From Rhizophagus irregularis (taxonomy: Eukaryota): a stretch of DNA of 64,000 bases. Position numbers and translations under genes: made by a program. Shown one piece after another: positions 4,774 to 64,000 of this stretch (its first letter is position 1; the number at the start of each line of letters is the position of its first letter). The stretch is from contig NC_089429.1 in assembly GCF_026210795.1 (NCBI RefSeq), positions 3,410,001 to 3,474,000 on the forward strand, in the 5' to 3' direction. The notes beneath the pieces are model-generated. The model saw only the letters and a program-made list of their open reading frames with translations, was not told the origin of the DNA and did no database searches.

Positions 4774-5148
4774 AGTGGGACTATCGATTACATTTATTTA
4801 AAAATTTTTTTTTTCATATATTATTCGTAAATATTTCTGATAATTAATATATAACGTTAATAAATTTAAATCGAATTTTCTATATATAATAATTTTCCGA
4901 ATTTAGTATGATTTAGTTCTGATTTATGTCCGATTTAAGTTTCGAAGTACATTTGATTGACTGTCTGAATTTAGTATGATTTAGTTCTGATTTATGTCCG
5001 ATTTAAGTTCCGAAGTACATCTGATTGGCAGTCAATCAGATAACAATCGGAATATATTTTTTTTGTAAAAATCGGACATATTTCAGCCGTAATTTGACCT
5101 AAAATCGGATATCCGATTTTTAGCCGATTTGCCTTATTTCGACTAGTG

Positions 5149-6230: not shown

Positions 6231-6752
6231 CATCAGGAAATTTGTTTAAGCGTAATTTAGTGTAATATTTCAGAGGTGGTGTAAAATTTCGAAATATTAC
6301 ACTAAAAACGTAATATTACAAAAGTTTACGCTTTTAAATTTGAATAATTATAGTAATTTATGAATATCTTGCTATCTACTGATCCAATCATGACGATCTA
6401 TAGCTCATTGGAATCAGCTTATCAAGACGAATCGAATGGTAGCAAAATCATATCTCTATGTTCGATAGATGACTTTCTATTAATTTAAAACTTTATTGCA
6501 TACTATAGAGCGTTCTATCAACTGTAGAAATGCAATTTTACTACCATTCGATTCGTCTTGATGAGCTGGTTTCAATGAGCTATAGATCGTCTTGATTGGA
6601 TCAGTAAATAGCGAGATATTCTTAAATTACTATAATTATTTAAATTTAAAAGCGTAAACTTTTGTAATATTACGTTTTTAGTGTAATATTTCAAAATTTT
6701 ACATCACCTCCGAAATATTACACTAAATTACGCCTAAACAAATTTCCTGATG
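6231..6752. mobile_element. Fold-back MITE with long TIRs (CATCAGGAAATTTG), 2-bp TSD
   Basis: Inverted arms over 200 bp; AC on both flanks; second copy at 43200-43709. Confidence 0.9.
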
Positions 6753-7041: not shown

Positions 7042-7320
7042 CACTGGTAAAAAAATGGTCTATCCTACACATATCCTATACATATCTTACAAATATCGGG
7101 TACTCAAAATGTAGAAAATCATACACAAATAATACACATATCATACACATATCGGGTACTTATATATATAGTATACCTATTAGGTACCTGATATATGTAT
7201 GATATATATATTAGTACCCGATATGTGTATAATATGTGTATTATTTGTGTATGATTTTCTACATTTTGAGTACCCAATATGTGTAAGATATGTGTAGGAT
7301 AAATCATTTTTTTACCAGTG
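7042..7320. mobile_element. CACTG-type MITE (279 bp)
   Basis: TIR CACTGGTAAAAAAATG...CATTTTTTTACCAGTG; 3-bp TSD GAA; palindromic body. Confidence 0.95.
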
Positions 7321-8386: not shown

Positions 8387-9546
8387 AGGACCCCGAAGAA
8401 TACATATAATACTGGGATCCAATTTTGTATAAACTTACTATGTAATTTCTTAATAAGTTATATGTTTGAAATTGTATAACCAAATAGCAGTTACGCAAAA
8501 AGTCAGATTTTTATTTGTATAACAATAATGATTTTTACAATAAGTAAGATTTTCATTTTGTATAACGGATATTAGAATTTTTTTTTATATACGTTTAAAA
8601 TTTTTTAAAGTTTTTTTTTATTTTTTGTTTAAGAAATTTTTAAGATATTTTTTAATAAAGAGTTTTTTTATTTGTTTTAAAAAACACTTGAAATATTTTT
8701 TAATAGAAATTGTTTTTTGTTTAAGAAGTTTTTAAGGGTTCGTTTAAAGACATTTTTTTAATAAAAATGAAGAAATTTTTTTAAAATTCATTTACAAAAT
8801 TAAAAAAAATACATTTTATTATATATCTCAGCATCCAGTGATCATAGAGAAATGAAACACAGCTTATTAGATTCGTCTCAATACGATGAGTCGAATGGTG
8901 GTAGTTTCATATTTCTAGGCGCGATAGATACCGAGTTATGTGATAAAATGTAAAAATGCACAGTAGACGAAAATACAAAGTGTCGATGTGTGGTATAGCT
9001 CATCATCTATCACACCTAGAAACACGAAACTACTACCATTCGATTCGTCTTGTCAAGACGAATCCAACGAGCTGTGTTTTATCTTTTTACGATCACTGGG
9101 TGGTGAGATATATAACAAAATGTATTTTCTTTTATTTTGTAGTATACACCCAAATTTTTGCATAAAACTTACTATATTATACATATTGGGCATCAATATC
9201 TATCGGGTATTTAAAATTTTAACATGCAATTTTGTTTAAAAATTTTATTTAAGTTATTTTTTAATAATTTTTTTTAATAATTTTTTTTAAAAAAATTTTT
9301 TAAGTATTTGTTAGAATTTTTAAATAGTTTTTAATAATATTTATTAAAATTTTCAATAAAATTTATTTGAAATTTTTCTTTAAAAATTTTTTTTTATATA
9401 AACTCAGATTTATAATTGTATAATTTATAATAAAATTTGAACTTATGTGATGATTTTGTATAAAGCTTCTAATAAAATTAGGCGTATAAAGTTATATTAA
9501 AATTTTGGGTCTGGATCTGAGTTGTATATATATTCTTCGGGGTCCT
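8387..9546. mobile_element. Non-autonomous TIR element with 8-bp TSD, superfamily uncertain
   Basis: TIR AGGACCCCGAAGAATA...TATTCTTCGGGGTCCT; TSD GCCTCAAT at 8379-8386 and 9547-9554; internal inverted repeat at about 8805-9130. Confidence 0.93.
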
Positions 9547-12299
9547 GCCTCAATGGTAGCTATAGGGGAGAAATCAGGAGTAACATCCCATCTATTATAA
9601 TGAAAACGAACACCATCTTCTATATCAGCCCAAGTAAAAAGGGTAGTCACTTCAGTGGTATCGCATCTAATCCGTTCATTAGTAATGGGTAGGATAAGCG
9701 AATATAGTAAAGAGACCTTCAGTATGCAAAAAGTTAATTCAGCATTCCGTCTTTTAGAAGGAAGTAAAGGGTATGAGCGGTGCAACCAGGGCAGGGAAAA
9801 AGTTTAATGATATCGCCAGGTAAAGATTTACAATTAGGAGAAATCCAATATATAATGAAGCAGATGTCTCGATCTGGTTGGACCAAAAGTTGTTTACCAA
9901 AAATGGGAGAACCAATTTCATCTAACGTGACAATCCAGTTCATGGTAGTAGAAGGAGAAGAAAGACAGGAATCAAGTTTATAGAACGAGAAGACGTTCAC
10001 AGGTAGAAAAGTTATATATTCATCGATTAAGCAATTATTAGAATCAGAAATAGTAGTTTGTCATTGGATATCTTTATACCAAAAGGGGATGTGACCAGGG
10101 CCACATTCACTGGTCAAAAACTAGGCAAATGTGGCATAGTAGCTTTTATCTTTATTAAATTTATTCAAACATTACAATTTATAAAAAATAAAAAGAAAAA
10201 TATAAAATAAAACTAACTAAAAACAAAGCTATATAGTCTTCTAAGAAAAAATAAAGTAAAAAATTAATCTAAAAAGAAAAATCGCATTACACTAAATTTC
10301 CCTAGATTTTCCTCCTTGATATATTCCAACCAAAGTAGAAGCAACTATGCTAACAAAATAACGAATAGCGTGCCTACTATGAAAATCGACATTTCATCCT
10401 ACAAAAGCTGTTATTAAGTAGCACCGTTAGACAACCCATAAAACCCAAAAAGTGATTAAACCAAGGCAAACTAAATTTCATCGAGTTCTTCAACCAATCG
10501 GTTCCAAAGTCACATTAATCGTGTAGGGTTGGAGATGGTAAAGATGAGTAAGATGTGTACGATGACAGCGGCAAATTAGATGGCCTCAGAGTAGTTTTCA
10601 ACTTATGAGTAATGTTCATTGCGTTTTCCCATTGATAAGTTTCATAAGAACGCGGATTCCAAATTCTTCTGAATTTTAAACAAAATTATTATGGATAGCA
10701 GCGACAACCTTTATCGCAGAATTTCTTGGGATAGTTAAATCAACAAATAGGTCAACGAAAAGTTTAGGTAAACAGTCACGAACGAGAGCATAGGAGGACC
10801 AATTAGTAGAAAAAAAGGACCAACATGAAAGAGAGGTAAGTTTAGTAATAAACGGAGTAAGATCGATATCAGCCATTTTACCGGCTTTATGAATTTTTGA
10901 GATTAAATGATGTTGATAAGTTTATAGAATTTGTTACATAGGCAAATGACGTTTTTTGCACATGAAAAGGTGCATTAAATATTCCATGCGATCGATACAG
11001 GAACAGCAAGTTAATTTGTCCAAGTATAAGTCTGGGCGAACTCTTTTAAGCTTTTCCAACACAGGTAATTCATTTAAGAAAAGTTTAAATTTGAAGGTAT
11101 GGTGCTGAAAGGCATGTTCAAAAGTGAAAGATGCGTCATGAGAAGGTTCGAATTTCAAAGTGAAGCAAGTAAGATCCCAATCAACAACATAATCTATATT
11201 ATCTGATAATAAAGAAATGAAATGAAATCACGTTAGATGTAATAAATCACGCATCAACTGCGTTTGATAAAATTGCTTGAGAGGATTGGACTCGCAGATG
11301 ACATCATCATCATAGGTTAAAATGAAATCATGGGCAGAGGCAAGATCCAAGCCAGAGATTAAAATACTGGATGATAAAGTGTGAGCAGTATTGGCCAAGG
11401 AGTCGGCAAAATCATTCAAATAGTTGCCAGAATGTGCTTTAATTTTAATTGGGAGAACAATCAGATTCTTGAAGAGAATAGTTCGTTCAATAATAGCCCA
11501 AAGTTCAAAGTTCGTAGTTTTGTAATAAAACTGGCTATTAGAATAAGTAGAAGAAGAACAACCTCAAAGGCCATCAATAGCAGTTTGCGAGTCAGTATAA
11601 ATGATAACTTCTGAGTTACGAGGAGAGATAGTTAAAACTGCGTAAATAGCGGCAGCTTTAGCACGAGAAGAAGAGGAATTATCCCGAATAATGCCATGTG
11701 CATAAGTAGTGATGGAGTTGGGAAAGCCAGCATCTGGTACAATTTACATCCAAGACCAGCCCATAGAAACGTCAGGAATTCCTAAGTTAATAAGAGACCC
11801 ATCAGTGAAAAAAATGTAACGTGAGTCCGTAGAAGGAATTAAAAGAGAATTAGCAAAAACAGCGGCAGCTGATGAGGATTCAATAGTGGTAGAAATAATA
11901 GGAGTTTCAATGGCGACTACAGGAGAAAAATCAGGAGCAATATTCCATCTATTAAAATGGAGACGAACACAATCTTCTATATCAGCCCAAGTGAAAAGAG
12001 AAGTCACTTTAAAGGTATTGCATTTTATCTGTTCATTGGTGGTAGGTAAAATGAGCAAATATTATAAGGAAACCTTTGGTGTACAAAGAGTTAAATCAGC
12101 ATTCCGTCTTTTAGAAGGAAGTAAAGGATATGAGCAGCGCAACCAGGGCAGGAAATAAGCTTGATGATATCACCAGGCGAAGATTCACAATTGGGAGAAA
12201 TCCAATGGACAATAGAGCAGGTACCACAACCTGCCTGGACTAAAAGTTGTTTTCCAAAAATAGGAGAACCAAATTCGTCCAACATGACAATCCAATTTA

Positions 12300-13531
12300 T
12301 TGTCCGGAGCGTAGCGAAGGACTATTTATTGTACGGAACTAGATAAATTTGTAGTACCGGTTTAACCCATGTAATTTTTCCTTCCTTCCACCTACGTCAT
12401 TACCACAATTTCCTTTTTGAAACATAATGCCCCTGCTTATTTCCCTTTATACTTTTTATTTTTAGTAACATTGTATGCAATGTCCTTGATTACTTGATAA
12501 AGCAAAATGTATCATATTCATTATATAAAAAAAAAAAGACCCCGTATTTTAAAAAAATTTTGTCACGTCGCGTTACTCCGCGTATCACATCTGATAAGAT
12601 CAATAATCAAACAAATAAGTCACATGAAAAAAAAAAGTACTTTCCTATTTCCTTCGTCTTACCCTTCCCCTTACTTCTCTCACTTTTTCTGGTGTTTAGT
12701 TTCCTTGAGCGTGATATTTCAGGTTTTCATTTTTTTTTTCTTTAATTTTTTTATCTTAATGACCGGTTTTTAACATTTTTTTCTTTTTTAGGCATTGTTT
12801 GTTAGCCCTTTGGATACATAGAAACTTGGTGAGAACATCTGCAAATGTATTTTTTCGAATTTATTTATTCTAACAAAGCATTGTTAACATTCAATTTTTC
12901 TCTTTTTTTAGATGGTTGATGTTTAAAACAAAATACTGAAAGTTACCAGCAGCGCCAAGGAAAAATGGTTTTTTATGAATAAATTTTGGTGTAAACTTGG
13001 CCCTTTCAGACTTTTTTTTTTATTTTTCTTTTAATGAAATGTTACTAATAGTTCTTTTCTTTTTTTCTTTTGTAGGTGATTCTTTGAGTCTCTTGGACAT
13101 ATATTTTGGTAAGTGAAGTATTCTTTTTACTTAAATCAATTCTTTTAGCGAAATGTTTGCTAATATTTCATCTTCACTTTTTTTAGAGTCATCTGGACGC
13201 GTTAGATTTAGGTAAGATATTTTTTTTACTTTGTTATTTGTTTTAACAAAATAACGAAACTTTTACTAGTAACATTTTGTTTTATTACTTTTTTTTAGAC
13301 AGTTTCTTCAAATATCTATGGACATGAATTTCGGTAAGGTTGGAAATCCGGTTCTCCATAGATGCATTACGGTATGTGTTTAAATATTTTTTTTTTGTCT
13401 TTTTTTTTATTTTTAACAAAATGTAACGTCTGCTAATATTTTGTTTGTTTCTTTAGTTGCAGATTTTAGGCAGCTTTTGGGTGACGAAACGACTTATTGC
13501 TCCGGACTTACAACGGTTCCTGTTTCCCTAG
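12300..13531 (+). mobile_element. Non-autonomous Helitron2/Helentron-like element containing a micro-exon array
   Basis: Inserted between A and T with no TSD; ends CTAG; subterminal inverted repeat GTCCGGAGC (12302) / GCTCCGGAC (13499); 5' partial hairpin GTCC...GGAC; short 3' hairpin AACGG-TTC-CTGTT. Confidence 0.72.
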
Positions 13532-14603: not shown

Positions 14604-15889
14604 TAAAGCTCCGCATGAGCCAGAGCCAGCTGCAAGAGCTGGCTCAAGCTTTTAATCTGTGCCATTGAGCTATTGGCGATTAAATTGGTTTAGATCGCAC
14701 CATGTAAACTGAAATGGCTCGAGCCGGTGATAGGCTCGGCTCAAAAAGCTCAAGCCAGTAATAGGCTCGGCTCAAAAAGCTCAAGCTGACTTGAGTTATC
14801 ATACAAAAAACGTTGCGAAAACGTTTTTTGTATAACATTATATTAAAAAAAACGTTTCGCAACGTTTTTTTTAATTCTTTAGTAAAAAACGTTGCGAAAA
14901 CGTTTTTTTTACTATATTATTTTAGAAAAAAATGTTTCGCAACATTTTTTTAAATTCTTTAGTAAAAAAACGTTGCGAAAACATTTTTTTTATCTAATAT
15001 TAGAAAAAAACGTTTCGCAACATTTTTCTAAATTCTTTAATAAAAAAACGTTGCGAAAATGTTTTTTTCACTATATTATATTAGAAAAAAATGTTTCGCA
15101 ACGTTTTTTTAAGTTCTTTAATAAAAAACGTTGCGAAAATGTTTTTTTCACTATATTATATTGGAAAAAACGTTTCGCAACGTTTTTTTAAGTTCTTTAA
15201 TAAAAAAATGTTGCGAAAACGTTTTTTCAGCTATATTATATTGGAAAAAACGTTTTGCAACGTTTTTTAAATTCTTTAGTAAAACGTTGTGAAAACGTTT
15301 TTCACTATATTATTTTAGAAAAAAACATTTTCGCAACGTTTTTTTAAATTCTTTAGTAAAAAAACGTTGCGAAAACATTTTTTTCACAATATTATATTAG
15401 AAAAAAACGTTTTGCAACGTTTTTTTAAGTTCTTTAATAAAAAAACGTTGTGAAAACATTTTTTTCACAATATTATATTAGAAAAAAACGTTTCGCAACA
15501 TTTTTTTAAGTTCTTTAATAAAAAAACGTTGCAAAAACATTTTTTTCACAATATTATATTAGAAAAAAACGTTTCGCAACATTTTTTTAAGTTCTTTAAT
15601 AAAAAAATGTTGCGAAAACGTTTTTTTCACAATATTATTTTAGAACAAAACGTTTCACAACGTTTTTTTTAATTCTTTAATAAAAAAATGTTGCGAAACG
15701 TTTTTCTGAAGATAAAGCTCGAGCGAAGCTTGAACTCGAGGCCATGAAAACTCGCGGTTCGCTCGGCGTTCACTTTAGCAGGCCTAAAATTTTTATGGCT
15801 CGGCTTATTCTGACTTAGGCCAGAATTTTTTTTTCGAGCTGAGGCTGAGCCCAGGTATCGGCGTCGGCTCGCCCACGTACGGAGCTTTA
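14604..15889. mobile_element. Non-autonomous hAT-type element with internal palindromic minisatellite
   Basis: TIR TAAAGCTCCG...CGGAGCTTTA; 8-bp TSD AAGGTATT/GAGGTATT (one mismatch); GAGCC/GGCTC subterminal repeats. Confidence 0.88.
14805..15710. repeat. Tandem repeat, about 77-bp unit, 11-12 copies
   Basis: Alternating AAAAAACGTTGCGAAAACGTTTTTT and its near reverse complement AAAAAACGTTTCGCAACGTTTTTT. Confidence 0.92.
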
Positions 15890-24420: not shown

Positions 24421-24696
24421 AAAACCAATATAGTACAGTATACAGATATGTATTCGATATGTGTAGTATTAATGCAGAAAATCAGGTACCCGATATGTGT
24501 AAGATATGTGTAAATATATATATCGTTTACATATCGTATACATATCATATACATATCGGTACCCGATATGTATATGATATATATATTTACATATATCTTA
24601 CACATATCGGGTACCTGATTTTCTGCATTAATACTACACATATCGGGTACATATCTGATACATATCTGCTACCCGATATATTGGTTTTTGACCAGT
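24421..24696. mobile_element. Body and right end of the CACTG MITE that was split by LINE copy 3
   Basis: Fold-back sequence ending TTGGTTTTTGACCAGT (terminal G missing); its left TIR is 16202-16217. Confidence 0.85.
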
Positions 24697-28479: not shown

Positions 28480-30131
28480 TAAGGATGGGTCCACAAATAA
28501 TTTCCAAAATCCGCAATATTGCAGATTTTGGAGTTGAATTGCGGTTAGTAACCCACAATTCCGCAATTCTGATTGGCTGATAATTAAATTTTTTTTTAAT
28601 GTCTTTAAATGATAATTTAATCAAAAAAAAAATTTTTAATAAATTTATTTATTTATTATTTATTAGAAACAATAAAACCATAATTTCTGAAATGGTGCAA
28701 CTGCGTCAAAAACTAAATCAAACACAGATAACAATGACGAACTTAATACTACTAATCAAAGTTCCGGCCAGAATCTACAAAAAAAAGTAGTGAAAGAACG
28801 TTAATAACGTTCTTACATAAGAAAAAACACAAAAAACCCTCCGCTTTCTCCTCTAGAAACACCTATCGGTCTCCATTTCCAAGTTCTAGGCTGGAATCTA
28901 CAAAAAAAAGAAGAAAAGAATGTTAATAAACGTTCTTACATAAAAAAAACAAAAAACTCGCTTCCCCCTTGAAAATACTCACCGGTCTCCATTTCCAAGT
29001 TCCAGGCTGGAATCTACAAAAAAAGAAGTAAAAGAACGTTAATAAACGTTCTTACATAAAAAAAAAAAAAACCAACTTCCACCCCTTTAAAATACTCGCC
29101 GGTCTCCATTTCCAAGTTTCAGACCGGAATCTACAAAAAAAAGAGGTAAAATAATATTAATAAACGTTCTTACATAAAAAAAAATAAAAAAAACCTACTT
29201 CTCCCCTTTAAAATACTCACCAGTCTCCATTTCCAAGTTCCAGGCCGGAATCTACAAAAAAAAGAAGTAAAGAACATTAATAAACATTCTTACATAAAAA
29301 AAATAAAAAACCCGCTTTCCCCTCCCTTTAAAATACTCACAGGTCTCCATTTCCAAGTTCCAGGCCGGAATCTACAAAAAAAAGAAGTAAAAGAATGTTA
29401 ATAAATGTTCTTACATAAAAAAATCCAAAAAAACCCTTGCTTCCCCTCTGGAAACACCTACTGGTCTCCATTTCCAAGTTCCAGGCTGGAATCTACAAAA
29501 AAAAAGAAGAAAAAAACGTTAATAAACATTCTTACATAAAAAAAACAAAAAAACCCACTTTCACCCCTTTAAAATACTCACAGGTCTCCATTTCCAAGTT
29601 CCAGGCCGGAATTTACAAAAAAAAGAATGAATTTTTTTAAAATGAAAAAAAAAATATTTAAAATTGCGCAATGCAATTAGTTGATTTGTACTATGCTGTC
29701 CGATAATCTAATCCAGATCATTAATAACCGTTGAATTAACCGGTTGATATGTTTCTTCTAAAAAATAAACTAATTTTTTTAAAAAATTTTATTAATAAAA
29801 AACCGAATTTTTTTTACTTTTAGTAATAACAAGAAATCGGTTTCTTTATTAGTTAATTATTAAAAAAATTACATTTATTAAAAATAATTATTCTTTTTTT
29901 TGCGAGCAATCTGCAATTCTGCAAATGTTCCGCAATTCCATAAAGTACCGCAATTCAACCGCAATTGAATTGCGGTACTTTGGATTATTTGCGGAATTGC
30001 GGAATATTTGCAGAATTGCAGACAATTGCGAATTGCAGATTTGCGGATATTTAGACTTCAAAATCTGCAATGTTCCGCAATACTGCAAATCGCAATTATT
30101 CTGCAATTGCCTATTTGCGGCACCATCCTTA
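28480..30131. mobile_element. Non-autonomous hAT-type element containing a micro-exon array
   Basis: TIR TAAGGATGG...CCATCCTTA; 8-bp TSD GTTTAGGG at 28472-28479 and 30132-30139; CCGCAATT subterminal repeats. Confidence 0.92.
28750..29625 (-). repeat. Tandem array, about 118-bp unit = 31-nt exon-like core plus intron-like spacer (7 units plus a terminal exon)
   Basis: Minus strand reads TTTTTGTAG|ATTCCGGCCTGGAACTTGGAAATGGAGACCG|GTGAGT. Confidence 0.85.
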
Positions 30132-33903: not shown

Positions 33904-33979
33904 TTTGATATTCACTCAATATTCGTTTAAAAAATTGAAGCAGGTTCAATATCGTCATATCGTCCTATTTATAAATTTA

Positions 33980-36900
33980 AAAAATCAAATCAATTAATAA
34001 TAAGAAAATCGTTAGCGTTCTACTGTGTTGACTTCTTAATTGGAAAATCAACTATAAATCATAATTAAAAAATCAAATCAATTAATTAAAATTAAGAAAA
34101 TCGTTAACATCCTACTGCGTTGATTTCTCAATTGACAAATCAACTATAAATCATAATTAAAAAAGACAAATCAATTAATAATAAGAAAATCGTTAGCGTT
34201 CTACTGCGTTGACTTCTCGATTGGAAAATCAACTATAAATCATAATTAAAAAATCAAATCAATTAATTAAAATTATACAGGTCGAAATATAAAAAATCAG
34301 TCACCAATCGGTTATATGATTGATTGGTGGCTGATTTGAAGCTGATTGGTTATATATTGGTGACCGATTCTTTTAATCTGTCACCAATCGGTCACCAATC
34401 AGGCATAAATTGCCAATCAGTCATCAATCAGTCATATGACTAATTGGTAACTGATTGGTTGCCGATTTGTTTACAATATTTGATTTACATATTAAAGTTA
34501 AAAAATTAGCATTATAGTCATGTAAAGCAAGTCAAATTATACTTAATCTGAGCTTTTGAGTTTGTTTTGATAAATATATTAAGTTTATTATTGACAATCA
34601 GTTACCAATTGGTCACCAATCTGACATAGCCGATTGGTGACTGATTGGTGACTGATTGGTTTACAATATCTGATTTACATATTAAAGTCAAAAAATTAGC
34701 ATTATAGCCTTGTAAAGAAAATCAAATTATACTTAATCTGAGCTTTTGAGTTTGTTCTGATAAATATATTAAGTTTATTATTAACAATCAGTCACCAATT
34801 GGTCACCAATCTGACATAGCCGATTGGTAACTGATTAGTGACTGATTGGTTTACAATATCTGATTTACGTATTAAAGTCAAAAAATTAGCATTATAGCCT
34901 TGTAAAGCAAGTCAAGTTATACTTTATTTGAGCTTTTGAGTTTGTTCTGATAAATATATTAAGTTTATTATTGACAATCAGTCACCAATCGGTCACCAAT
35001 CTGATATAAGCGATTGGTGATCGATTGGTTACTGATTGATTTGTAATATCTGATAGTTTTTAAGAATTCAGGATTTTTATTTATTACTTTAATATGTAAA
35101 ATTGGATCAATGAAAGAAAATCGGCTACCAAATTAATAGCCGATTAGTGACCGATTGGCTTTTAAAAAAACATTCATTTAATAAAGATAAATGGCATTCT
35201 GATTTACAAATTTTTTATTTTTGGGTCATAGTTTTCGTCCAAAAACCTGAAAAAAAGATGAAAGAAACGTTTAATAACATTTCTTAAAGAATTAATAAAA
35301 AACCCCACTCTCTGACCCTCTTTTTACCTAAATTCTAAAGTCCAGTTCATAGTTTTCGTCTGGCAACTTAAAAAAGAAAAAAAAGAAGCATTTAGTAACG
35401 TTTTTTAAAGAATATAATAAAAAAAATCCACTTCCTGACCTCCTTTTTTACCTAAATTCCAAAGTCCAGTTTGTATTATTCGTCCGGCAACCTAAAAAAA
35501 AAAGAAAGAGAAGCATTAGAACGTTTCTCTTAAAAAAAAATATTATCCCTTTCCTCCTTCACTTTACATAATTCCAAAGTCTGGTTCGTAGTTTTCATCT
35601 GGCAACCTAAAAAAGAAGCATTTAGTAACGTAATAAAATAAAAAAAACCTACTTCCCAACTCTCCTTTTACCTAAATTCCAAAGTCTGGTTCGTATTATT
35701 TGTCCGGCAACCTAAAAAAAAAGAAAGAGAAGCGTTAGAACGTTTCTCTTAAAAAAATAAAATATTATTCTTCTTCTCCTTCACTTACATAATTCCAAAG
35801 TCCAGGTCATATTATTCGTCTGGCAACCTAAAAAAAAAGAAAGAGAAGCGTTAGAACGTTTCTCTTAAAAAAAATATGTTATTCCAGTTCATAGCCGGTA
35901 AGTTGATAAGTCAAATCGGGTAGCAATCGGTTAACAATATAATATTGACCGATTGATGATCAATTTCTTTTCCTGCAATTTGTATCACTCGTGAATTAGG
36001 TGAGATGTGATCCGTAATCTAGATCAGGATAATCCAATTTGGAAAAAAAAAAATTTCTTTTTTATGGACGAAAAAAATTGCTGGACTTTGAGAATTGAAG
36101 TAAGAGAGGCGTTTTTCGTTGTTTTTTTTTAATAAATTAAACTAATTTATTTTTCTCTTTTGTAGGGTTACTGGACGAAAACTGGACTCTTGGAATTGAG
36201 GTAAGGGAGGGCTGAGGGAGAAGGTTTTTCATTTTTTTTTAATATATTTTTTTCTTTTTTGTAGTGTTGCCGGACGAAAAATATTGCCAGACTTTTGGAA
36301 TTAAAGTAAGGGAGGGCTGAGAGAAAGCTTTTTTGTTGTTTTTTTTTAATAAATTAAACTAATTTGTTTTTTTCTTTTTTATAGAGTTGCCAGACGAAAA
36401 TATTGCCGGACTTTTGGAATTGAAGTAAGGGAGGACTGAGGAAAAGCTTTTTCGTTGTTTTTTAATAAATTAAACTAATTTATTTTTTTCTGTTTGATAG
36501 AGTTGCCGGACGAAAAACATTGCCGGACTTTGGAATTAAGGTAAGGGAAGGTCAGGGAAAAGAGTTTCGTGATTTTTTTTTTTAAATAATTTAATTTATG
36601 TTTTTTCTTTTTTTAAGGTTAGCCAGACGAAAAATATGATCGGATTTTTGGAATTGAGGTAAAGGAGGACTGAGCAGAATCTACTTTTTTGTAAGGTTGC
36701 TGGACGAAAATATACTAACGTTTCATTCCTTTAGACTAATTTGAATCTCGATAAAAAATAGAGTTGTTTCTTTTCTAAGCGAGTCCAAGGCATTGGGAAG
36801 TTTGACTGGAACCTGGAATTTTTTAGACGTTTCTGGATCATTGATTTCGGTGGGACAGAGCAATTTTTTTTAAAAAAAAAAATTTTTTTTATAACAAAAC

Positions 36901-39900
36901 GCTCACTAACGTTTCAATTTTTTTTTTTGTAGATGGTGATATTGGAATTCAGTGAATTTATTATTCAAAATATATTGTGAAGGCAATTGGATGATGATTA
37001 TCTAACGAAGATTATGTTATGGAGTCTTTAAACAAGAAAATTTAAAGGTTCTTAAGATCTCCTTAGACGTAAGTATCGTTATGTTTATTTTTTTTTTAAA
37101 AAAAAAACAATCTTTTTTAATGAATCGTTTATTAAAATGTTTCGTTTATTTCATTTTTATAGACAACCGATTCTTTGTTATCTTTGGACATTGATTTCGG
37201 TAAGGGTAAATATTCTTGGATTATTTATTTAATTAAATAATTACTAATGTTTGTTTGTTTAAAAATCTTTTAGACAGCTTTTCTACTCTTTGGACGTGGA
37301 AATTTGGTGAGTATGATGTTTCTTTTAATTTTTTATTCTATCTTTTAAAGGACATTAACTAATTTCTTTTTTTTTAGATGGTTTGTTTCTCAGCTCTTTG
37401 GATGTAAAATTTGGTGAGAACATCCCTTTAACAAGACGTTTTGTATTCCAGGTCTTTAGATGAGTGAAAACTTTCGTAGGGATTAGGCCATCGAATATAA
37501 ATCTACTCCACTCTTCCAACACTTTCGCCGTCTTTTCCATTCCTTTTCCATCCCTTTTCACACTTTCGTCTCCCCTTTCCCATTCTTTTTTCCTTTCCAT
37601 CTCTTTTATCTTTTTTAGACGACTTTTCAGCCCTTTGGATATGGCATTCTGGTAAGTTTTGTAATGGTTCTATAAGGTAAAATCAAATATTAGTCCAAGA
37701 TGGTTTTCAGTATATAATAAGGTAAAATTGTTTATATTTCTGAACCTGTATAATATTTAGTCATTAGCAAATTAGATTTTTTCAATAACGGGTTTAATAA
37801 CATGTTTTAAAATATTTTTTTTTATACAGTTTTTATAAACCAGTTCAAAACTCTTTAAACTCCATATGGGAAGGGTTATATGGGATATCTGATGGAAAAT
37901 TTTTTTTAAGAGATTTTCTAAAAGTTCATATGGAAAGGATTCGTATGGGATATCTGATAGAAAATTTTTTTTTTGAGAGATTTTTTAAGATTCGTATAGG
38001 ATATTTTTGATAAATAAAGATTTTTTTTTTTAAGATTTCTAAGTGTTCGTATGGGAAGAGTTCATATGGAATATTTTGATAAAGATTTTCTAAGAGTTCG
38101 TATGGAAAGAGTTCGTATGGGATATTTTAATAGAGATTTTTTTTGTGAAATTTTTTAGGGTTTGTATAGATGTTTTTGATAGAAAATTTTTTTTTGAAAT
38201 TTTCTAAGATTCGTATAGGAAATAGGAATTTTTTTTGAAATTTTCTAAGAATTTGTATGAGATATTTTTAATAGAGAATTTTTTTAGAATTCAAACATTA
38301 AATAAAAAATAATATACTTTTTATTAAATTTATATTAAATAAATTAATATTATTAAGCAATTTTAAAAAAATTTAGGTCTCCGAAAGTCAAGGTAAAATT
38401 TAATACAAATTTAAAAGGTCATTATATATAAGGTAAAATAATGAGATGAGTGAATTTGAAATTTTCAGTTTCTGGAGATGCGATATTTATCTATTATATC
38501 TATTATTAACCAATTAAAATTCGGTCTGATCTTTATGCACGTGATCTGATCTTAACATGCATATAAATTACCAAACTCAAGTTTGTTTATTTTTCAAAAA
38601 ATATACACGCTCTTTCTTTTTTATTTTTTTTTTACTCTCTTTACATTTTACAGGTATATTAATTATTGTATTTTTGTCATTAAATTTATTGTACTGACTA
38701 TATTTTATTTTATAATATTAACTTTATCACTTTTTAATATTACTAATGTAACGTTATATTTCTTTTATTTTATATTACTAATGTTATTCTTTTTTTTATA
38801 TTTTACTAACATCATCACATATTTTTCTTTTTTTTTATCAAACTCTTCATAATACTAACTTTGTATTTGTACTTTACTATGATTACTAACTTTTATATTT
38901 ACACTTTACTATTTATTAAATATTACTAACTTTATCAGTTATATTCTAACATCTGTTTTCAAATATTACATCATTTTGTAGTATAAAGTATTTAAAAAAG
39001 ATTATGAATGGTTTTTATTTAAATAAAGACACTATGTATTTTATTGTTTGTAGAGTTTATAATTTTAATAAATATTATAATGTGCTGTAATAAATTTTAT
39101 TATTGGTTATGTGATTACTACTATAAATTAACCCATAAATTGACCATAAATTGACCATCGATTAACCATAAATTGACCATCGATTAACCATAAATTGACC
39201 ATCGATTGACCATAAGTTAACTATCGATTGACCATAAGTTGACTATCGATTGACCATAAATTGACCATCGATTGACCATAAATTGACCGCCAATCGGTCA
39301 CCAATCAGTCACCAATCGGTCACATCGGTCACCAATCTATCACCAATCTGTCACCAACCGGTCACCAATCTGATACCAATCTGACACCAATCGGTCACCA
39401 ATCTGATACCAATCGGTATATCAATCCGTCATCAATTGGACTGCCCGGTTGGTATTGGATTTTGGCAGAAATTGGATGCCAATCAGGCACAAATTGGATA
39501 CCCGATTGATGACTGATTGATGACTGATTTGATACTTTTTGACCTGTGTTAAGAAAATCGTTAGCGTCCTACTGCGTTGATTTCTCAATTAACAAATCAA
39601 CTATAAATCATAATTAAAAAAGACAAATCAATTAATAATAAGAAAATTGTTAGCGTTCTACTGTGTTGATTTCTTGATTGGAAAATCAACTATAAATTAT
39701 AATTAAAAAATCAAATCAATTAATTAAAATTAAGAAAATCATTAGCGTACTACTGTGTTGACTTTTCGATTAGAAAATCAACTATAAATCATAATTAAAA
39801 AATCAAATCAATTAATAATAAGAAAATCATTAGCGTTCTACTGTGTTGATTTCTCGATTGAAAAATCAACTATAAATCATAATTAAAAAATCAAATCAAT

Positions 39901-40117
39901 TAATAATAAGAAAATCATTAGCGTTCTACTGTGTTGATTTTTCGATTGAAAAATCAACTATAAATCATAATTAAAAAAGACTAATCAATTAATAATAAGA
40001 AAATTGTTAGCGTTCTATTGCGTTAATTTCTCAATTGAAAAATCAACTATAAATCATAATTAAAAAAGTCAAATCAATTTATAATAATAAGAAAATTGTT
40101 AGCGTTCTACTGCATTA
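33980..40117. repeat. About 88-bp tandem repeat between the divergent genes, split by the 34276-39548 insertion
   Basis: Unit AAGAAAATCGTTAGCGTTCTACTGTGTTGA...AATCAACTATAAATCATAATT; about 3 copies at 33980-34275 and 6-7 copies at 39549-40117. Confidence 0.85.
34276..39548. mobile_element. Non-autonomous CACAG-type (CMC/CACTA-like) element, 5.3 kb, containing divergent micro-exon arrays
   Basis: Ends TACAGGTCGAAA...TTTTGACCTGTG; TSD TTA at 34273-34275 and 39549-39551; GTCACCAATCG subterminal repeats at both ends; the host tandem repeat resumes exactly. Confidence 0.88.
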
Positions 40118-41082: not shown

Positions 41083-43199
41083 AAGTTCATCAACTTGAAA
41101 TAGGTGAAACATCAACACCCACTTCAGCTGAACAAATGATTGATGAATCTATTAGACAAGAATCGGAAGAATCAGATAACAGTAATCAAGATGATGTTGA
41201 TGATGAATATCAAGATATCGAATTTAACTTCTTATCTCGATAACGTGCAAGAAAGTATACAAATCATCCGGAAATTTCAGAAGATCCAGAAGATTCATCA
41301 TCATCCAAATATACTACAGAGGAAGATATCTACAGTGATACATTGTCTATAGGCAGTGAATCAGATAATGATCCAATTTTGGAATTTCTGGAATTTTTGA
41401 AGACTATTCACCACCTAGTTATGAACCATTTCAAAACCCACTATATTCAGAATCGAATTATAATCGATTTTTATGGATGTTACTTTGGATAATGAACTTT
41501 CGAATAAGATTCAATATCGCAGAGACAGCTACTGAGACTCTAATAAAATTTATGAAATTGGCCCTGTACGAGTTCAGTAGTGACGATTTTAATGATTTTC
41601 CAGATTCGCTTTACTTAACAAGAAAGAAGCTTGGATTAAACGACCAATTTCATAGTTTTGTACCTTATCCGAAATGTTACAAATTGTATAAAAAAGAGGA
41701 AGTGGTAGATTTCAAACAAGAGGACAATCCTGCTATAATAAAATGTCAACACATAGAATTTCCCAATTCTTCAGTTCATAGATCACGTCTTTGCAATATG
41801 GCATTGTCTGAAAAAATTAGCGTATCGACAAATCGAACAATAATATGACCTAATTTAATGTATCTGTTTGCTGGAATCAATCAACAATTTGCCACTATAT
41901 TTTGTCGGCCTGGGTTTAAAAATTCTTTCTGACATTGGACTAATCGGTCGAATTTTGATAATATTTTGACCGATATATATGATGGGTAAGTGTGGAAGAA
42001 TTTTAAAGAATAGGACAATGAAGATTCGCCAAATTTTTTCAGAAGCGAAGTGGCCGATTCTCATCTTGGCTTGATGCTGAATCTTGATTGGTTTCAGCCA
42101 TATGATAGTACTATTTATAATATCGGTATCATATACGCTGCTATATGCAATTTGCCATGCGATATCCGATTTAAACGTGAAAATTTATTGACTCTTGGCA
42201 TTTTACCTGGGCCAAAGAAGGTCAGCTTACATAAAGTAAACCACTATTTAGCACCAATAGTTAACGAATTGGAAACACTCTGGGCTGGGTTAACACTAAA
42301 TCGTACTTATGAATGCGAAAATGGAAAGAGAGTTCGTGGTGCTTTAATCTTAGTATCATGTGACATTCCTGTCACAAGAAAAATTTGCGGTCATGTTTCT
42401 GCCTTAGTTTCATGTTACAGGTGTGAGAAAAAAGCAAATTATGAAAATGTGCAGCATAATGTTGCTGGAATGGATAATGTAGGGTATTCTGCTCAAGATT
42501 CGAATGAGCACTGGCAAAACGCATTAGGTTGGCGAAGATGCAACTCAGACGCTGCTAGAAAGTGCTTCGTCAAAGAAACTGGCGTTAGATGGTCTGAATT
42601 GTTGCGTCTATCATATTTCGACCCTATTAGATTTATTACAGTCAATTCAATGCATTGCTTATTTCTGGGCATTGCTAAGTGGATAGTAAAACAAATTTGG
42701 ATCGATGGGGGTATTTTGACACCAAATTCTTTAAACAAAATTCAGAAAAAGATGGACGAATTTCAGATACCATCCGATTTAGGTCGAATTCCAGGAAAAA
42801 TTCATAGTGGAAAGGGATTCACCAATTTTACGGCCGATCAGTGGCGAATATTCTTTACAATTTATTCAACTGTATCACTTTGGGAACACCTTTCAGACGT
42901 AGATAGAAGAATTCTGACTCATTTTGTCAGAGTTTGTTCGATTTTGGTAAATCAGATTCTAGAATCTAATTTGGTGAATGAAGCCCATAGAAGTCTTATT
43001 GAAATAGTCAAATTAATTGAAAATTACCACGGCAGAGATAAGATCACACCAAATCTTTATCTTTCTCTGCATTTGCGTGATTGCTCATCTGATTATGGAC
43101 TATTATATGCGTTCTGGTATTTCTTTTTCGAACATATGAACGGTATATTAGGTAAATATCCGTTAACGATTTTTTAACGATTTTAACGATTTCAATATT

Positions 43200-43709
43200 C
43201 ATCAGGAAATTTGTTTAGGCGTAATTTAGTGTAATATTTCAGAGGTGGTGTAAAATTTCAAAATATTACACTAAAAACGTAATATTACAAAAGTTTACGC
43301 TCTTAAATTTGAATAATTATAGTAATTTAAAAATATCTCACTATCTACTGATCCAATCAAGACAATCTATAGCTCATTGGAATCAGCTCATCAAGACGAA
43401 TCGAATGGTAGTAAAATCATATCTCTACGTTTGATAAATGACCTTCTATTAATTTAAAACTTTATTACATACTACAGAGCGTTCTATTAACTGTAGAAAT
43501 GCGAATTTACTACCATTCGATTCGCCTTGATGAGCTGATTCCAATGAGCTATAGATCGTCTTGATTGGATCAGTAGATAGTGAGATATTCTTAAATTACT
43601 ATAATTATTCAAATTTAAGAGCAAAACTTTTGTAATATTACAATATTTCAAAATTTTACACCATTTCCGAAATATTACACTAAATTACGCCTAAACAAAT
43701 TTCCTGATG
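43200..43709. mobile_element. Fold-back MITE (same family as 6231-6752) inside the transposase intron
   Basis: CATCAGGAAATTTGTTTAGGCG...CGCCTAAACAAATTTCCTGATG; TT on both flanks. Confidence 0.9.
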
Positions 43710-48148: not shown

Positions 48149-48817
48149 TAATAATGAGAAATAATTACAATAGTTAATCCAATGAGAATTAATTCTAATA
48201 TCATGTGATTTAAATAATGATACTATTTAGGAAATAAATGATGTAATTATGCAGGGCAAAATATTCGCGATCAAAGTCCAGTTAACATATAATTATGCAG
48301 GCAATGCAGGCAATTGTAATTTTATATTATATTTTAAAACATTGCAATTTAATTAAGGAATAAGGATAAGCATATTATATTTTAAAAATAGTGCAATTTA
48401 ATTAAGGAATAAGGATAAGCATATTATATTTTAAAAATAGTGCAATTTAATTAAGGAATAAAAATAAGCATATTATATTAGAATCAATAAGTTTTAAGGA
48501 CTTCGTTGATTAAATTTATTACATTAGATCAATAAATTTTAAGAACTGCGTTACAAAAAAAAATTTAGAACTGCGTTAATTAAATTTATTACATTAGAAT
48601 CAAAACTGTATTTATTTTGTTACAAATACTTTAATTATGTAGAATGTTATTATGTTTATCAGTTCATGTTTTAAACATTATAACGAATTTTAAAATTATT
48701 ATAAATATTATGAAATTTGAATTTTTTTTTCGCAATTCAAAACCAAATTGTATTTTAATTTTCAAATTGTATTTAATTTTCAAATTTCAAGTTACGAAAA
48801 AATCATAAAAATAAAAA

Positions 48818-49491
48818 ATGGCAGCATTAGTACCTTTTGTCTCACCGCCACCACCAGTATTCCAATGGATATTAACGCAGCTAGGCAATTAATCGCAGAG
48901 CGGAGAAACTTACATCAGCAATTCGAAAGAATTGCAAACCGTTATCATGTAAATGCATGGACAATAATAGCAAATAGGGTGTTCGTTGCAACGGGATTTG
49001 CAGCGACACCCAGGCAATGCCAAACAAAATGGAATGCTCTCAAACGAGGTTATGAAAACCTCAGTAGGATAATAAATAATAATGATGACGACATTCCTAT
49101 TATAAGCCCAAATAGTTTCGATAGAGCGTGTTTTGCTGATATGAACGATGAATTCTGGTTACAAACCGGTAATTATTATTAATTATTATTTTAAATTAAT
49201 TTTATTTAGGCAATTCATTCAATTCATTAATATTTTTATTGGATTTTAGATCTGTTTAGACGAGAGTATCGATGGCAGCATGCTGCGCATGATCGACGTC
49301 GATATGAATATAGATTGCGAAGGAAAAGAAGAAGGTCGCGATCTAGGTCTCGATCAAGAAATAGATCAAGAAGTAGAGATAGAAGACGAGATAGAAGTAG
49401 AGATAGAAGACGAGATAGAAGTAGAGATAGAAGACGGGACAGAAGTAGAGATAGAAGAAGAGGTAGAAGCAGGTCCCCACATAGAAGATAA
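48818..49491 (+). pseudogene. Myb/SANT-like (trihelix/MADF-type) domain plus C-terminal RS/RD dipeptide domain; intron 49169-49249; probable 1-nt deletion near 48868
   Basis: FQW-(D)INAARQLIAERR...AWTIIANRV...QCQTKWNALKRGY; exon 2 in frame gives RRRSRSRSRSRNRSRSRDRRRDRSRD...RSRSPHRR*. Confidence 0.75.
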
Positions 49492-60481: not shown

Positions 60482-60743
60482 TTACATTCAATAGTAGATA
60501 GTAATGTTTTATATTGCACTTAATTTGGTTTTTAGTAATCATAAATCTCAGATATTTAGTTTAAATCCAATTGGTGTAATCCAATATGCCATTTTGTTAA
60601 GGATGGAAGAATCCTATAAAAATTATAGTGAATTTAACTAATAAATTTTAGTTATACTATAATAGTATTACAAGTATAATAGAAAACTGTTTTCTATTTT
60701 AGCAGTACAGTAGGTCTTAGTATTGCTTTAAAATAGGATACTA

Positions 60744-63620
60744 CACTAGTTGAAATAAGGCAAATCGGCTAAAAATCGGACATCCGATTTTAGGTCGAAT
60801 TATGGCTGAAATATGTCCGATTTTTACAAAAAAATATATTCCGATTGTTATCCAATTGACTACCAATCAGATGTACTTCAGAACTTAAATCGGACATAAA
60901 TCAGAACTAAATCATACTAAATTCGGACAGTCAATCAGATGTACTTCAGAACTTAAATCGAACAAAAATCAGACTATTTTTTTCTGAATTTATTTCAATT
61001 TTTATTATCAAATTTATTAAATGTATTTATTAATTAGATGCTTAAAAACTTTATAATTATATTATTATTATTAGCATCTATCTAAATTACAAATAAATAT
61101 TGGCAATTCAAAATTATAATAAAATAATAATAATAAAATAAACTATGATTCGTACTTACGAATCTTGGTTTTGGTTCATCCATTCGTCGGAAATCCACCC
61201 AAACTTATAAAAAAAAGAAAAGAACGATTATTAGTAACCGTTCATTAATATTAATAAAAAAATTTAACCAAGATTCGTATATACCTACGAATCTTGATCT
61301 TTTTCCGTTCTCCAGAACTTGGAAGCCCACCCGAACCTATAAAATAAAAGAAAGGAACAGTTAGTACCCGTTCCAAAATAATAAAAAATAAAAATAAAAA
61401 ATAAACCAAGATTCGTATTTACTTATGAATCTTGGTTCCTTTTCTTCCGATCTTTGGAAGTCAACCCAAAACCTAAAAAATAAAAGAAAGGAACGGTTAG
61501 TAAACCATTCCAAATAAAAAAAACAAAACCAAAACCAAGATTCGTATATACTTACGAATCTTGGTTCTTTTCCGTACTTCGGAATTCGGAAATCCACCCG
61601 ATCCTAAAAAAAAGAAAAGAACGGTTATTAGTAACCGTTTATTAATAATATTAAAAAAAAAAGAAAAAAAAATCAAGATTCGTAATTAGTAGTTACTTAC
61701 GAATCTTGATTTTCCGTTCTTCAGAATTCGAAAATCCACTCGATTCTAAAAAAAAAGAAAAAAACGGTTATTAGTAACCGTTCATTAATAATATTAAAAA
61801 AAAAAGAAAAAAAAATCAAGATTCGTAATTAGTAGTTACTTACGAATCTTGATTTTCCGTACTTCAGAATTCGGAAATCCACCCGATTCTAAAAAAGAAA
61901 AGAACGGTTATTAGTAATCGTTCATTAATAATATTAAAAAAAAAAGAAAAAAAAATCAAGATTCGTAATTAGTAGTTACTTACGAATCTTGATTTTCCGT
62001 TCTTCGGAATTTGGAAATCCACCCGATCCTAAAAAAAAGAAAAGAATGGTTATTAGTAACTATTCATTAATAATATTAAAAAAAAAAGAAAAAAAAATCA
62101 AGATTCGTAATTAGTAGTTACTTACGAATCTTGATTTTCTGTACTTCGGAATTTGGAAATCCACCCGATCCTAAAAAAAAAGAAAAGAACGGTTATTAGT
62201 AACCGTTCATTAATAATATTAAAAAAAAAGAAAAAAAATCAAGATTCGTAATTAGTAGTTACTTACGAATCTTGATTTTCCGTACTTCAGAATTCGAAAA
62301 TCCACCCGATCCTAAAAAAAAGAAAAGAACGGTTATTAGTAACCGTTCATAATAATAATAATAAAAATAAAAATTAAACCAAGATTCGTACTTACTTACG
62401 AATCTTAGTTCCACTTTTTCCAAAGATCGGAAGCCCACCTGAACCTAAAAAAAGAAAAGAACGGTTATTAGTAACTGTTCATTAATAAAATTAAACAAAA
62501 CAAAAAAATTAAAACCAAGATTTGTATATACTTACGAATCTTGGTTCTTTTCCGTTCTTTGGAACTCGTGAACCTAAAAAAAGAAAGAACGGTTATTAGT
62601 AACTGTTCATTAATAAAATTAAAAAAAAAAACAAAATTAAAACTATGATTCGTATATACTTACGAATTTTTGGTTTTTTTTCGTTCTTCGGAACTCGGAA
62701 ACCCCTCCTGAGACGCCGAACCTATAAAAAATAAAAGAAAAAGAACGGTTAGTAATAACCGTTCCAAATATTAAAAAAAGAAAAAAAAAACTAAGATTCA
62801 TAGTACGGAATCTTAGTTTTTTTCCGTTCTTCGGAAACTCACCCAAATGGCCGAACCTATAAGAAAAAGAAAAGAACGGTTAGTAACCGTTCATATAATA
62901 GGAAAAAAAATAAAATAAAAAATAAACCAAGTTTCGTACTTGTACTTACGAAACTTGGTTCTTTCCGTTCTTCGGAACTCGGAAGCCAACCCGATCCTAA
63001 AATAATAAAGAAAAAAACGGTTATTAGTAACCGTTCGTTAATATTACAAAAAAAAAACAAAAAAAAATTAAACCAAGATTCGTTTACTTACAAATCTTGA
63101 TTCTTTTCCATTCTTCGGAACCAGGAAGCCTGCCCGAAACCTATAAAAAAGAAGGAACAGTTAGTAACCGTTCCGAAATATTAAAAAAAGTAAAAACCAA
63201 GATTCTTAAGAATCTTGGTTCTAAATCCCCTTTCTCTTCCCCCTTTCCCCATTTTTTACCTTAAAGTCCAGTTTCGTGTTAAAGCCGGCGTCCTCCTATA
63301 CGTCCTACAAAAAAAATAATGAAAAGAAACGTTAGTTCGTTTCTTAAATTAACAAAACTTCACTTTCCTGTTTTTTACCCTTTTTTAAACTTTGATATGC
63401 GTAACGTGTGACGTTTAATTAGACTATTCGACCAATGTCTAATCGTAGATCATGGTCGAATTTTTAATTGAATATAGGCCAGCCTTTTTCGACTAGTGAA
63501 ATCAGAAATCGGCTATGCCGAATGTCACCTGATATACAGACGATCGTCAATTATTAGCCAAAATTTAGCCAAAATAAGGACGATTTGCCTTATTTCCGAT
63601 TTGCCTTATTTTGACTAGTG
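60744..63620. mobile_element. Non-autonomous CACTA element (2.9 kb) containing a micro-exon array
   Basis: TIR CACTAGTTGAAATAAGGCAAATCGG...CCGATTTGCCTTATTTTGACTAGTG; TSD CTA; the first ~230 bp are the reverse complement of about 4920-5148. Confidence 0.93.
61145..63380 (-). repeat. Tandem array, about 140-bp unit = ~45-nt exon-like core plus intron-like spacer with two hairpins (about 15-16 units)
   Basis: Minus strand reads TTTTTAG|GATCGGGTGGATTTCCGAATTCCGAAGTACGGAAAATCAAGATTC|GTAAGT. Confidence 0.88.
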
Positions 63621-64000
63621 CTAGTTAAGCATTTCCTACCTTCTGAATTTAAGTTTCCATCTAATAGTGCATATATAAGATACTTTTTAGTATAATGAGT
63701 GGTTTGCAGATTAATTATATTAGAATTAATCATTATGTATTTTTTTTGTATATAAACTTTTTAAAAAAAATAATTAATGAACTTTTAGCTAAAATTCTCC
63801 TTTTTTACTAAAACTCAAAAATTGTGCTTTGCAAATTTTTTAGCATCAATTTAATAAGAGCTATAAAAAAATAATCAGACTATCAAATCATATTGAGATA
63901 ATTGCATAGCCTTAATTTTTTAACTTTTTTATTAATTTATTAATCCCAAATAATACTGATATAACTTACATAAGGAGTTGCGTAAAGTTTATATGAAAAA

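Follow-up and report, generated by a model that had tools for sequence, protein, structure and literature searches.

What is a series of very short exons, repeated head to tail and provided with splice signals that lie in hairpins: a gene, the relic of one, or a device of the mobile element that carries it? The question is raised by the minus strand near one end of the window, i.e. the whole stretch of 64,000 nucleotides of Rhizophagus irregularis DNA that was analysed. A first-pass annotation had recognised a tandem array of micro-exons there, and had proposed a TE-borne, heavily spliced transcript that could be non-coding or give a repeat peptide. We tentatively read the array as an intron-dense, partly spliced non-coding cassette that may keep non-autonomous elements active through gene mimicry, an account that is quite possible if still short of probable.

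The element and its ends

The micro-exon array is the interior, or cargo, of a larger transposon: an element of 2,877 bp at 60744..63620 (minus strand). Its upstream terminal inverted repeat (63596..63620, minus strand) begins with CACTAGT and is identical at 24 of 25 positions to the end of a transposase-coding element at 5124-5148. The downstream terminal inverted repeat lies together with subterminal repeats in 60744..60973 (minus strand), and both flanks carry the 3-bp target-site duplication TAG (63621..63623 and 60741..60743, minus strand). The last 231 bp of the element are 93.5% identical to window positions 4918-5148, the end of the autonomous partner whose PF02992 (tnp2 transposase) ORF occupies 11-817. 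Since no frame stays open for more than 98 codons and the ends are shared with the PF02992 element, we classify it as a non-autonomous CACTA/CMC element, with CACT(A/G) inverted ends, the TAG duplication, partner-shared ends and no transposase of its own. The array is thus TE-borne, as had been proposed. Non-autonomous CACTA/CMC-EnSpm elements are reported, and are expressed, in R. irregularis according to the available text of two studies (PMC8647823, PMC11075540); another transposase in the window is 91% identical to an R. irregularis protein.

Four metagenome contigs (L001-L004) carry the array unit at about 70-77% identity; they were found by a metagenome scan with the branch stem and are therefore biased toward intact branch stems, and a scan with the exon-end motif returned 0 loci. 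Between the upstream end of the element and the array lie a second, inner CACTA-like end (63483..63498, minus strand) and a CpG-rich motif (63394..63415, minus strand) that probably acts as promoter. The motif is common to L004, where the inner end precedes it at equal distance, and to window position 12560. The depth of poly(A) reads starts just downstream of it.

Anatomy of the array

From 63378 down to 61160 the minus strand can be parsed into 16 exon-like pieces (38-58 nt) with 15 intron-like spacers (83-119 nt) between them. AG is present at 16 of 16 acceptors and GT at 15 of 16 donors, the units, coordinates and motifs being as first described; the exceptional donors are an AT at 61426 and a degenerate one at 62806. 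In minus-strand order the array comprises a putative first intron with a branch hairpin (63305..63378); exon 0 (63260..63304), which is similar to the exons of other arrays at 35200-36700; an intron of 119 nt (63141..63259) with a purine-rich start and a GT-less copy of the donor hairpin at about 63193-63222; and 15 hairpin units (61160..63140; exons 1-15, introns of 83-98 nt). Six of these units are near-identical and form the core (exons 7-12; 61556..62311). Within a hairpin unit the donor in its stem is followed by a U-rich spacer, the branch hairpin, the polypyrimidine tract and AG. The donor loop of five core units (7-11; 61686-62257) also contains a perfect TACTAAT, too near the donor to serve as an ordinary branch point. 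In L004 and P0122 the first exon is rich in pyrimidines; the window copy has no such exon.

The signals of U2 spliceosomal introns (GT, branch motif, polypyrimidine tract, AG) are thus ordered on one strand. A strict pattern for donor, branch, polypyrimidine tract and AG matches 61100-63400 at 10 places on the minus strand and at 0 on the plus strand, against a mean of 0.11 and a maximum of 2 in 300 Markov sequences; because the units are copies of one another, this count shows order and strand bias rather than ten independent events. By hand count over the window and L001-L004, 38 of 41 hairpin donors carry GT, 36 of these 38 with G at +5, and GT is found in 0 of 2 hairpin copies (homologous to each other) situated within an intron that has a donor of its own further upstream. 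The loop bases +4 to +6, which are outside the palindrome, remain donor-like across loop lengths of 4-19 nt. The units are about 70-77% alike and their exon lengths drift while the splice signals are kept, and these signals look to be under selection. Recent changes of G+1 (3) are about as common as those at other CpG positions of the stem (3-4; hand count).

Coding capacity

A protein search with the exon-containing frame gave three R. irregularis proteins among eight candidates; with two more isoforms for one of them, five public gene models at three loci are concerned. All five are predictions, and all are chains of array exons in window order, with 2-4 core units against six in the window, so that the core copy number varies. 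Decoded by hand, their donors are the GT at +1, the GT at +5, a GT in the 3' arm of the stem, or, if the hairpin donor has suffered damage, the upstream site at 62842.

That the spliced chain encodes a repeat peptide is most improbable. In one of its frames the exon chain reads 241 codons without a stop (0 of 2000 base shuffles; with random exon phases, about 0.03 per frame path), 9 of the 16 exon lengths are divisible by 3, and five annotated proteins exist. The open frame has no ATG, however, and in the frame first proposed for the peptide none occurs from the stop at codon 60 to that at codon 204. The five models keep the exons in one order yet differ in the frame in which they read the same exon, the proposed frame of the core exons being used in 0 of 5, which makes such a peptide unlikely. 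The remainders 0/1/2 of the parsed exon lengths in L001-L004 are 6/11/7 of 24, so the frame is not kept there either. No Pfam match was obtained in a scan of the three gene-model proteins, and a near-length protein search yielded 0 of 1 candidates. A coding micro-exon gene, for which a conserved frame with a start codon was sought and found absent, was likewise rejected. With no conserved reading frame, and none open beyond the 98 codons given above, the suggestion of a non-coding transcript gains support.

Transcription and splicing

Two poly(A) runs with the same species label contain 1,475 and 1,904 reads of the family. These are mostly 90-95% alike and hence mostly derived from other copies. 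Their summed depth per bin ranges from 5 to 277 in the array and from 1 to 12 in the subterminal region, with an abrupt border: 238.6 in bin 63275-63381, then 1.06 in the next. Contig depth in run X16, whose kind is unrecorded, shows no drop across 63381, so that contaminating DNA is no explanation for the step in RNA. The core units have little RNA depth (5-25 in bins 61670-62097); taken with the likeness of the reads, this suggests that the window copy may be silent. Transcription of the array is accordingly shown for the family, on the poly(A) reads over the array, and not for the copy in the window. Read mates are balanced between the strands and give no transcript direction; oligo-dT could also capture antisense RNA, that strand being rich in A.

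Heavy splicing had also been predicted, but the reads fall short of showing it. Many poly(A) reads retain introns, the branch and polypyrimidine positions being deeply covered, and most of the top RNA loose ends listed pass from an intron into an exon. The best 15 of 95 joints, all ranked by contig depth, include no junction from within the array; spliced reads from divergent exons would align poorly. A comparison of RNA depth between exons and introns was not used, contig depth being a poor normaliser. One class of loose ends, at 61537 (57, 58 and 39 reads in runs X21, X22 and X24), agrees by eye with positions 1475-1483 of L003 in 9 of 9 letters and then with 1575-1595 in 18 of 21. This match to L003, a proxy that is different DNA from that of the sequenced strain, indicates that a 91-nt GT-AG intron is skipped in a related copy, immediately beyond the downstream end of the array. 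Reads of this class pass through the hairpin donor unspliced, and a stem is also predicted near the donor of the L003 junction. Splicing is therefore supported, only indirectly, by one downstream junction and by the gene models, and opposed by the introns kept in much of the poly(A) RNA and by the want of an in-array junction among those best 15.

Read differences in X21 comprise C>T at 107 and G>A at 111 places, against 57 and 53; such an excess is as expected if many copies are methylated. The observed/expected ratio of CpG is 2.06 in the array, a value inflated by clustered G/C, against 0.65-1.08 in the LINE and transposase regions; in the other arrays it is ordinary (0.90-1.26).

Hairpins at donors and branch points

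In 26 of 43 donor hairpins 92.7% of the cells are paired, against 87.0+/-0.8 after shuffling, and 13 cells are altered on both sides, against 2.9, a number reached in 0 of 500 shuffles. The 26 were picked by hand; since 4 near-copies, both GT-less copies and 11 further hairpins, of which some are bulged or damaged, were set aside, these figures lean high. One pair of the stem is A-U in 19, U-A in 6 and G-C in 1, with zero mismatch. In the branch stem 310 of 328 cells (41 units) are Watson-Crick pairs, and G-U and A-C occur 9 and 8 times, i.e. with no RNA-strand bias; the same test on the donor stem (raw count 7:25) was set aside on account of misregistered rows and bulged outer pairs. From the donor-stem covariation and the branch-stem pairing, the palindromes are maintained, be it as RNA or as DNA, between which the G-U/A-C counts do not distinguish.

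The co-varying stem around the donor, as first described, is upheld by these double-sided changes; full pairing of the donor is not. By folding, 13 of the 15 hairpin units have +1/+2 paired, with a probability of at most 0.14 of being unpaired, +5/+6 (the second GT) lie mostly open in the loop, and only +1 to +3 are paired in most units. Similarly, the reported overlap of the branch motif with a hairpin loop applies to ten TACTAAT-type units, where the branch A is predicted to be looped, and fails in four of five TACTAAC-type units, where it is predicted to be paired. These positions were read from the folded structures, the automated branch pick having often taken an upstream look-alike.

Two other explanations turn on these hairpins. 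In the first, which we consider improbable, hairpin-masked donors would stall spliceosomes and thereby trigger siRNAs through RNAi, after the example of transposon introns in Cryptococcus, either dampening the element's own family or serving the host. With 8-19 bp the stems are short for a Dicer substrate, the branch and acceptor signals are of strong consensus, and the read-matched L003 junction also has a stem predicted near its donor; furthermore, a cargo that silenced itself would not be expected to spread with several types of element. Consistent with it are the predicted pairing of +1/+2, the abundant intron-keeping reads, the recruitment of RNAi by stalled spliceosomes in C. neoformans (PMC6232588) and the 41% of R. 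irregularis sRNA loci given as unannotated in the available text of PMC8647823. In the second, quite improbable in our judgment, the palindromes would be a DNA landing pad for a VANC- or TnpA-like transposon protein with a part in anti-silencing or transposition, and the splice signals would be secondary. VANC and TnpA are described as binding tandem motifs in non-coding transposon DNA (PMC10398659, 10.64898/2026.08.24.746577). The strand-symmetric mismatches, the covariation by Watson-Crick pairs only and the two copies in which the hairpin persists without GT would fit such a site, but it would leave unexplained both the one-strand order from donor to AG and the RNA border at 63381, and its half-sites would have a spacing that varies from 4 to 19 nt.

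Other cassettes in the window

Five further exon/intron cassettes with no clear ORF are situated in three other mobile inserts of the window, which we take to be CACTA-, hAT- and Helitron-like. The hAT-like non-autonomous insert (28480-30131; 9-bp inverted ends, 8-bp duplication) lies in a LINE and contains one cassette (28760-29600, minus strand) of seven units, each with a 31-35-nt exon, an 85-90-nt intron and a branch hairpin. The CACAGG-ended insert of 5.3 kb (34276-39548; TTA duplication) is nested in a CACTGG-ended element (30872 to about 45364) and holds three cassettes at 35230-37450, with divergent arrays at 35230-35860 (minus) and 36060-37450 (plus). The Helitron-like insert (12296-13528; asymmetric inverted ends, CTAG end, promoter-like motif at 12560), again in a LINE, has a cassette at 12700-13500 with 6-7 non-identical introns and short exons between them. 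Several of these cassettes have branch hairpins of differing sequence. An exon motif, TGGA(C/T), recurs in arrays B-F, where 15 of the 34 segments parsed (false parses included) contain it against about 0.07 expected per segment; it is only a lead. Non-autonomous DNA elements need only their ends, and recurrent intron cargo therefore suggests a benefit.

Several neighbouring features were recorded in passing. An 88-bp tandem repeat (33977-34267, 39550-40112) upstream of the autonomous element's second ORF has units with AG, a short hairpin and a weak GT on the minus strand, and may represent a further leader array of exons and introns. In L004 (about 1-240, minus strand) an array of the 35230-35860 type adjoins a CACTA-like end in opposite orientation. 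An 81-bp palindrome-rich tandem array in a LINE (14805-15705) is free of splice signals; long inverted repeats of perfect type (MITE-like), some CACTGG-ended, occur at 6231-6752, 7042-7320, 8793-9141, 24443-24657 and 43199-43631; and a long AT-rich intron-like stretch at 38654-39000 contains about eight consecutive TACTAA(C/T). A Myb/SANT-like DNA-binding ORF (PF13837) is found at 48721-49182 and is of a kind typical of PIF/Harbinger elements.

The array could also be a passive relic, which we regard as unlikely yet worth serious consideration: the units would have come under selection while serving a coding transposon gene as its 5' leader, and non-autonomous derivatives would afterwards have carried and expanded them as a satellite, with DNA template switching to keep the palindromes and no present function. 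In favour of this, a leader intron occurs in duplicate at the second ORF of the autonomous element (2200-2800), the compensatory changes involve Watson-Crick pairs alone and show no bias toward G-U, mutations of G+1 (3) are about as frequent as those of the other CpG positions in the stem (3-4), the core copy number varies, and palindromes and tandem repeats abound in the window. Against this, no ORF is found downstream of the hairpin unit type in the window or in L001-L004, the bases +4 to +6 stay donor-like at every loop length from 4 to 19 nt, and cassettes recur in unrelated types of element.

A possible role in gene mimicry

We favour mimicry of a gene because several observations converge on it: the element's ends and duplication, the RNA border at 63381, GT kept despite drift, the L003 junction, the five gene models, cassettes in three unlike inserts and the CpG ratio of 2.06. 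Counting against it are the missing in-array junction among the best 15 of 95, the possibly silent copy, mates on both strands, the G-U:A-C count of 9:8, the C>T/G>A excess and the ordinary CpG ratio elsewhere. Under this mechanism a promoter near 63400 would drive sense transcription of units that probably grew through tandem duplication. The stems, with +1 GT paired and +5 GT exposed, may slow or shift the choice of donor and so give partial splicing; dense loading with splicing factors would then shield the element from silencing. Resembling an intron-rich host gene, it would stay open for transposase supplied in trans. In human cells, mobile DNA that carries introns is shielded from HUSH even if these are not spliced; the protection scaled with intron length, was smaller for short or stuffer introns, and was not conferred by a spliced stuffer (PMC8770142). 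HUSH is an animal system, and for Glomeromycota the literature search brought up no silencing system that senses introns.

More generally, DNA transposons of several superfamilies in Glomeromycota might share a portable gene-mimic cassette that licenses escape from silencing, a wider proposal that is possible though we would not call it likely. Such a cassette would consist of a promoter, non-coding micro-exons and hairpin-tuned introns, and its sole product would be the fact of being spliced. If the cassettes are general cargo, they would explain part of the unclassified repeats, about a quarter of the R. irregularis genome (PMC8647823), as well as part of the 'orphan' multi-exon gene models, five of which are chains of array-family exons. 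They would also offer a natural many-copy test, in an early-diverging fungus, of introns marking DNA as self, and a test of how stems at donors and branch points tune splicing.

Comparison with known systems

The array is a real cargo architecture, apparently new to the literature searched, in a known class of transposons. Such arrays are not described in the available text of PMC11075540, PMC8647823, PMC11952901, bioRxiv 2022.10.19.511543 and PMC8469720, and no prior description was found by title and abstract; the supplementary TE library of PMC11075540 may hold the family as a consensus. With non-autonomous CACTA/CMC-EnSpm elements the array element shares CACT ends, a 3-bp duplication, subterminal repeats, ends in common with a PF02992 element and the absence of transposase. 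It differs in its interior, where exons and introns form a tandem array that is transcribed and has structured splice signals; the word 'intron' is absent from the main text of PMC8647823 and PMC11075540.

Intron content or splicing kinetics decides the silencing of mobile DNA in HUSH and in the stalled-spliceosome RNAi of Cryptococcus (PMC8770142, PMC6232588). Both are host systems of other lineages, and their likeness to the array is by analogy. VANDAL/VANC and Spm/TnpA resemble the array in their fast-evolving tandem repeats, in non-coding transposon regions and in a link to escape from silencing, but concern protein-binding DNA motifs, with no splice architecture described in the available text (PMC10398659, 10.64898/2026.08.24.746577).

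Many short exons in series are known from multi-exon non-coding snoRNA host genes and from the micro-exon genes of Schistosoma. The array departs from these in giving no Rfam match at gathering score, in its unconserved exon phase and in being transposon-borne; a snoRNA or miRNA host gene was rejected, all 16 Rfam matches being far below the gathering score. An introner was rejected as well, the intron being found only in tandem with homologous exons (window, L001-L004) and not dispersed alone. The introner-like elements (PMC8469720) and sister stwintrons (PMC9860276) of fungi do resemble the array as near-identical spliceosomal introns with predicted hairpins. Those introns insert singly at unrelated sites in genes and pair the two ends of the intron, whereas in the array whole exon-plus-intron units stand head to tail in a transposon and form local stems, of which one lies across the exon-intron border.
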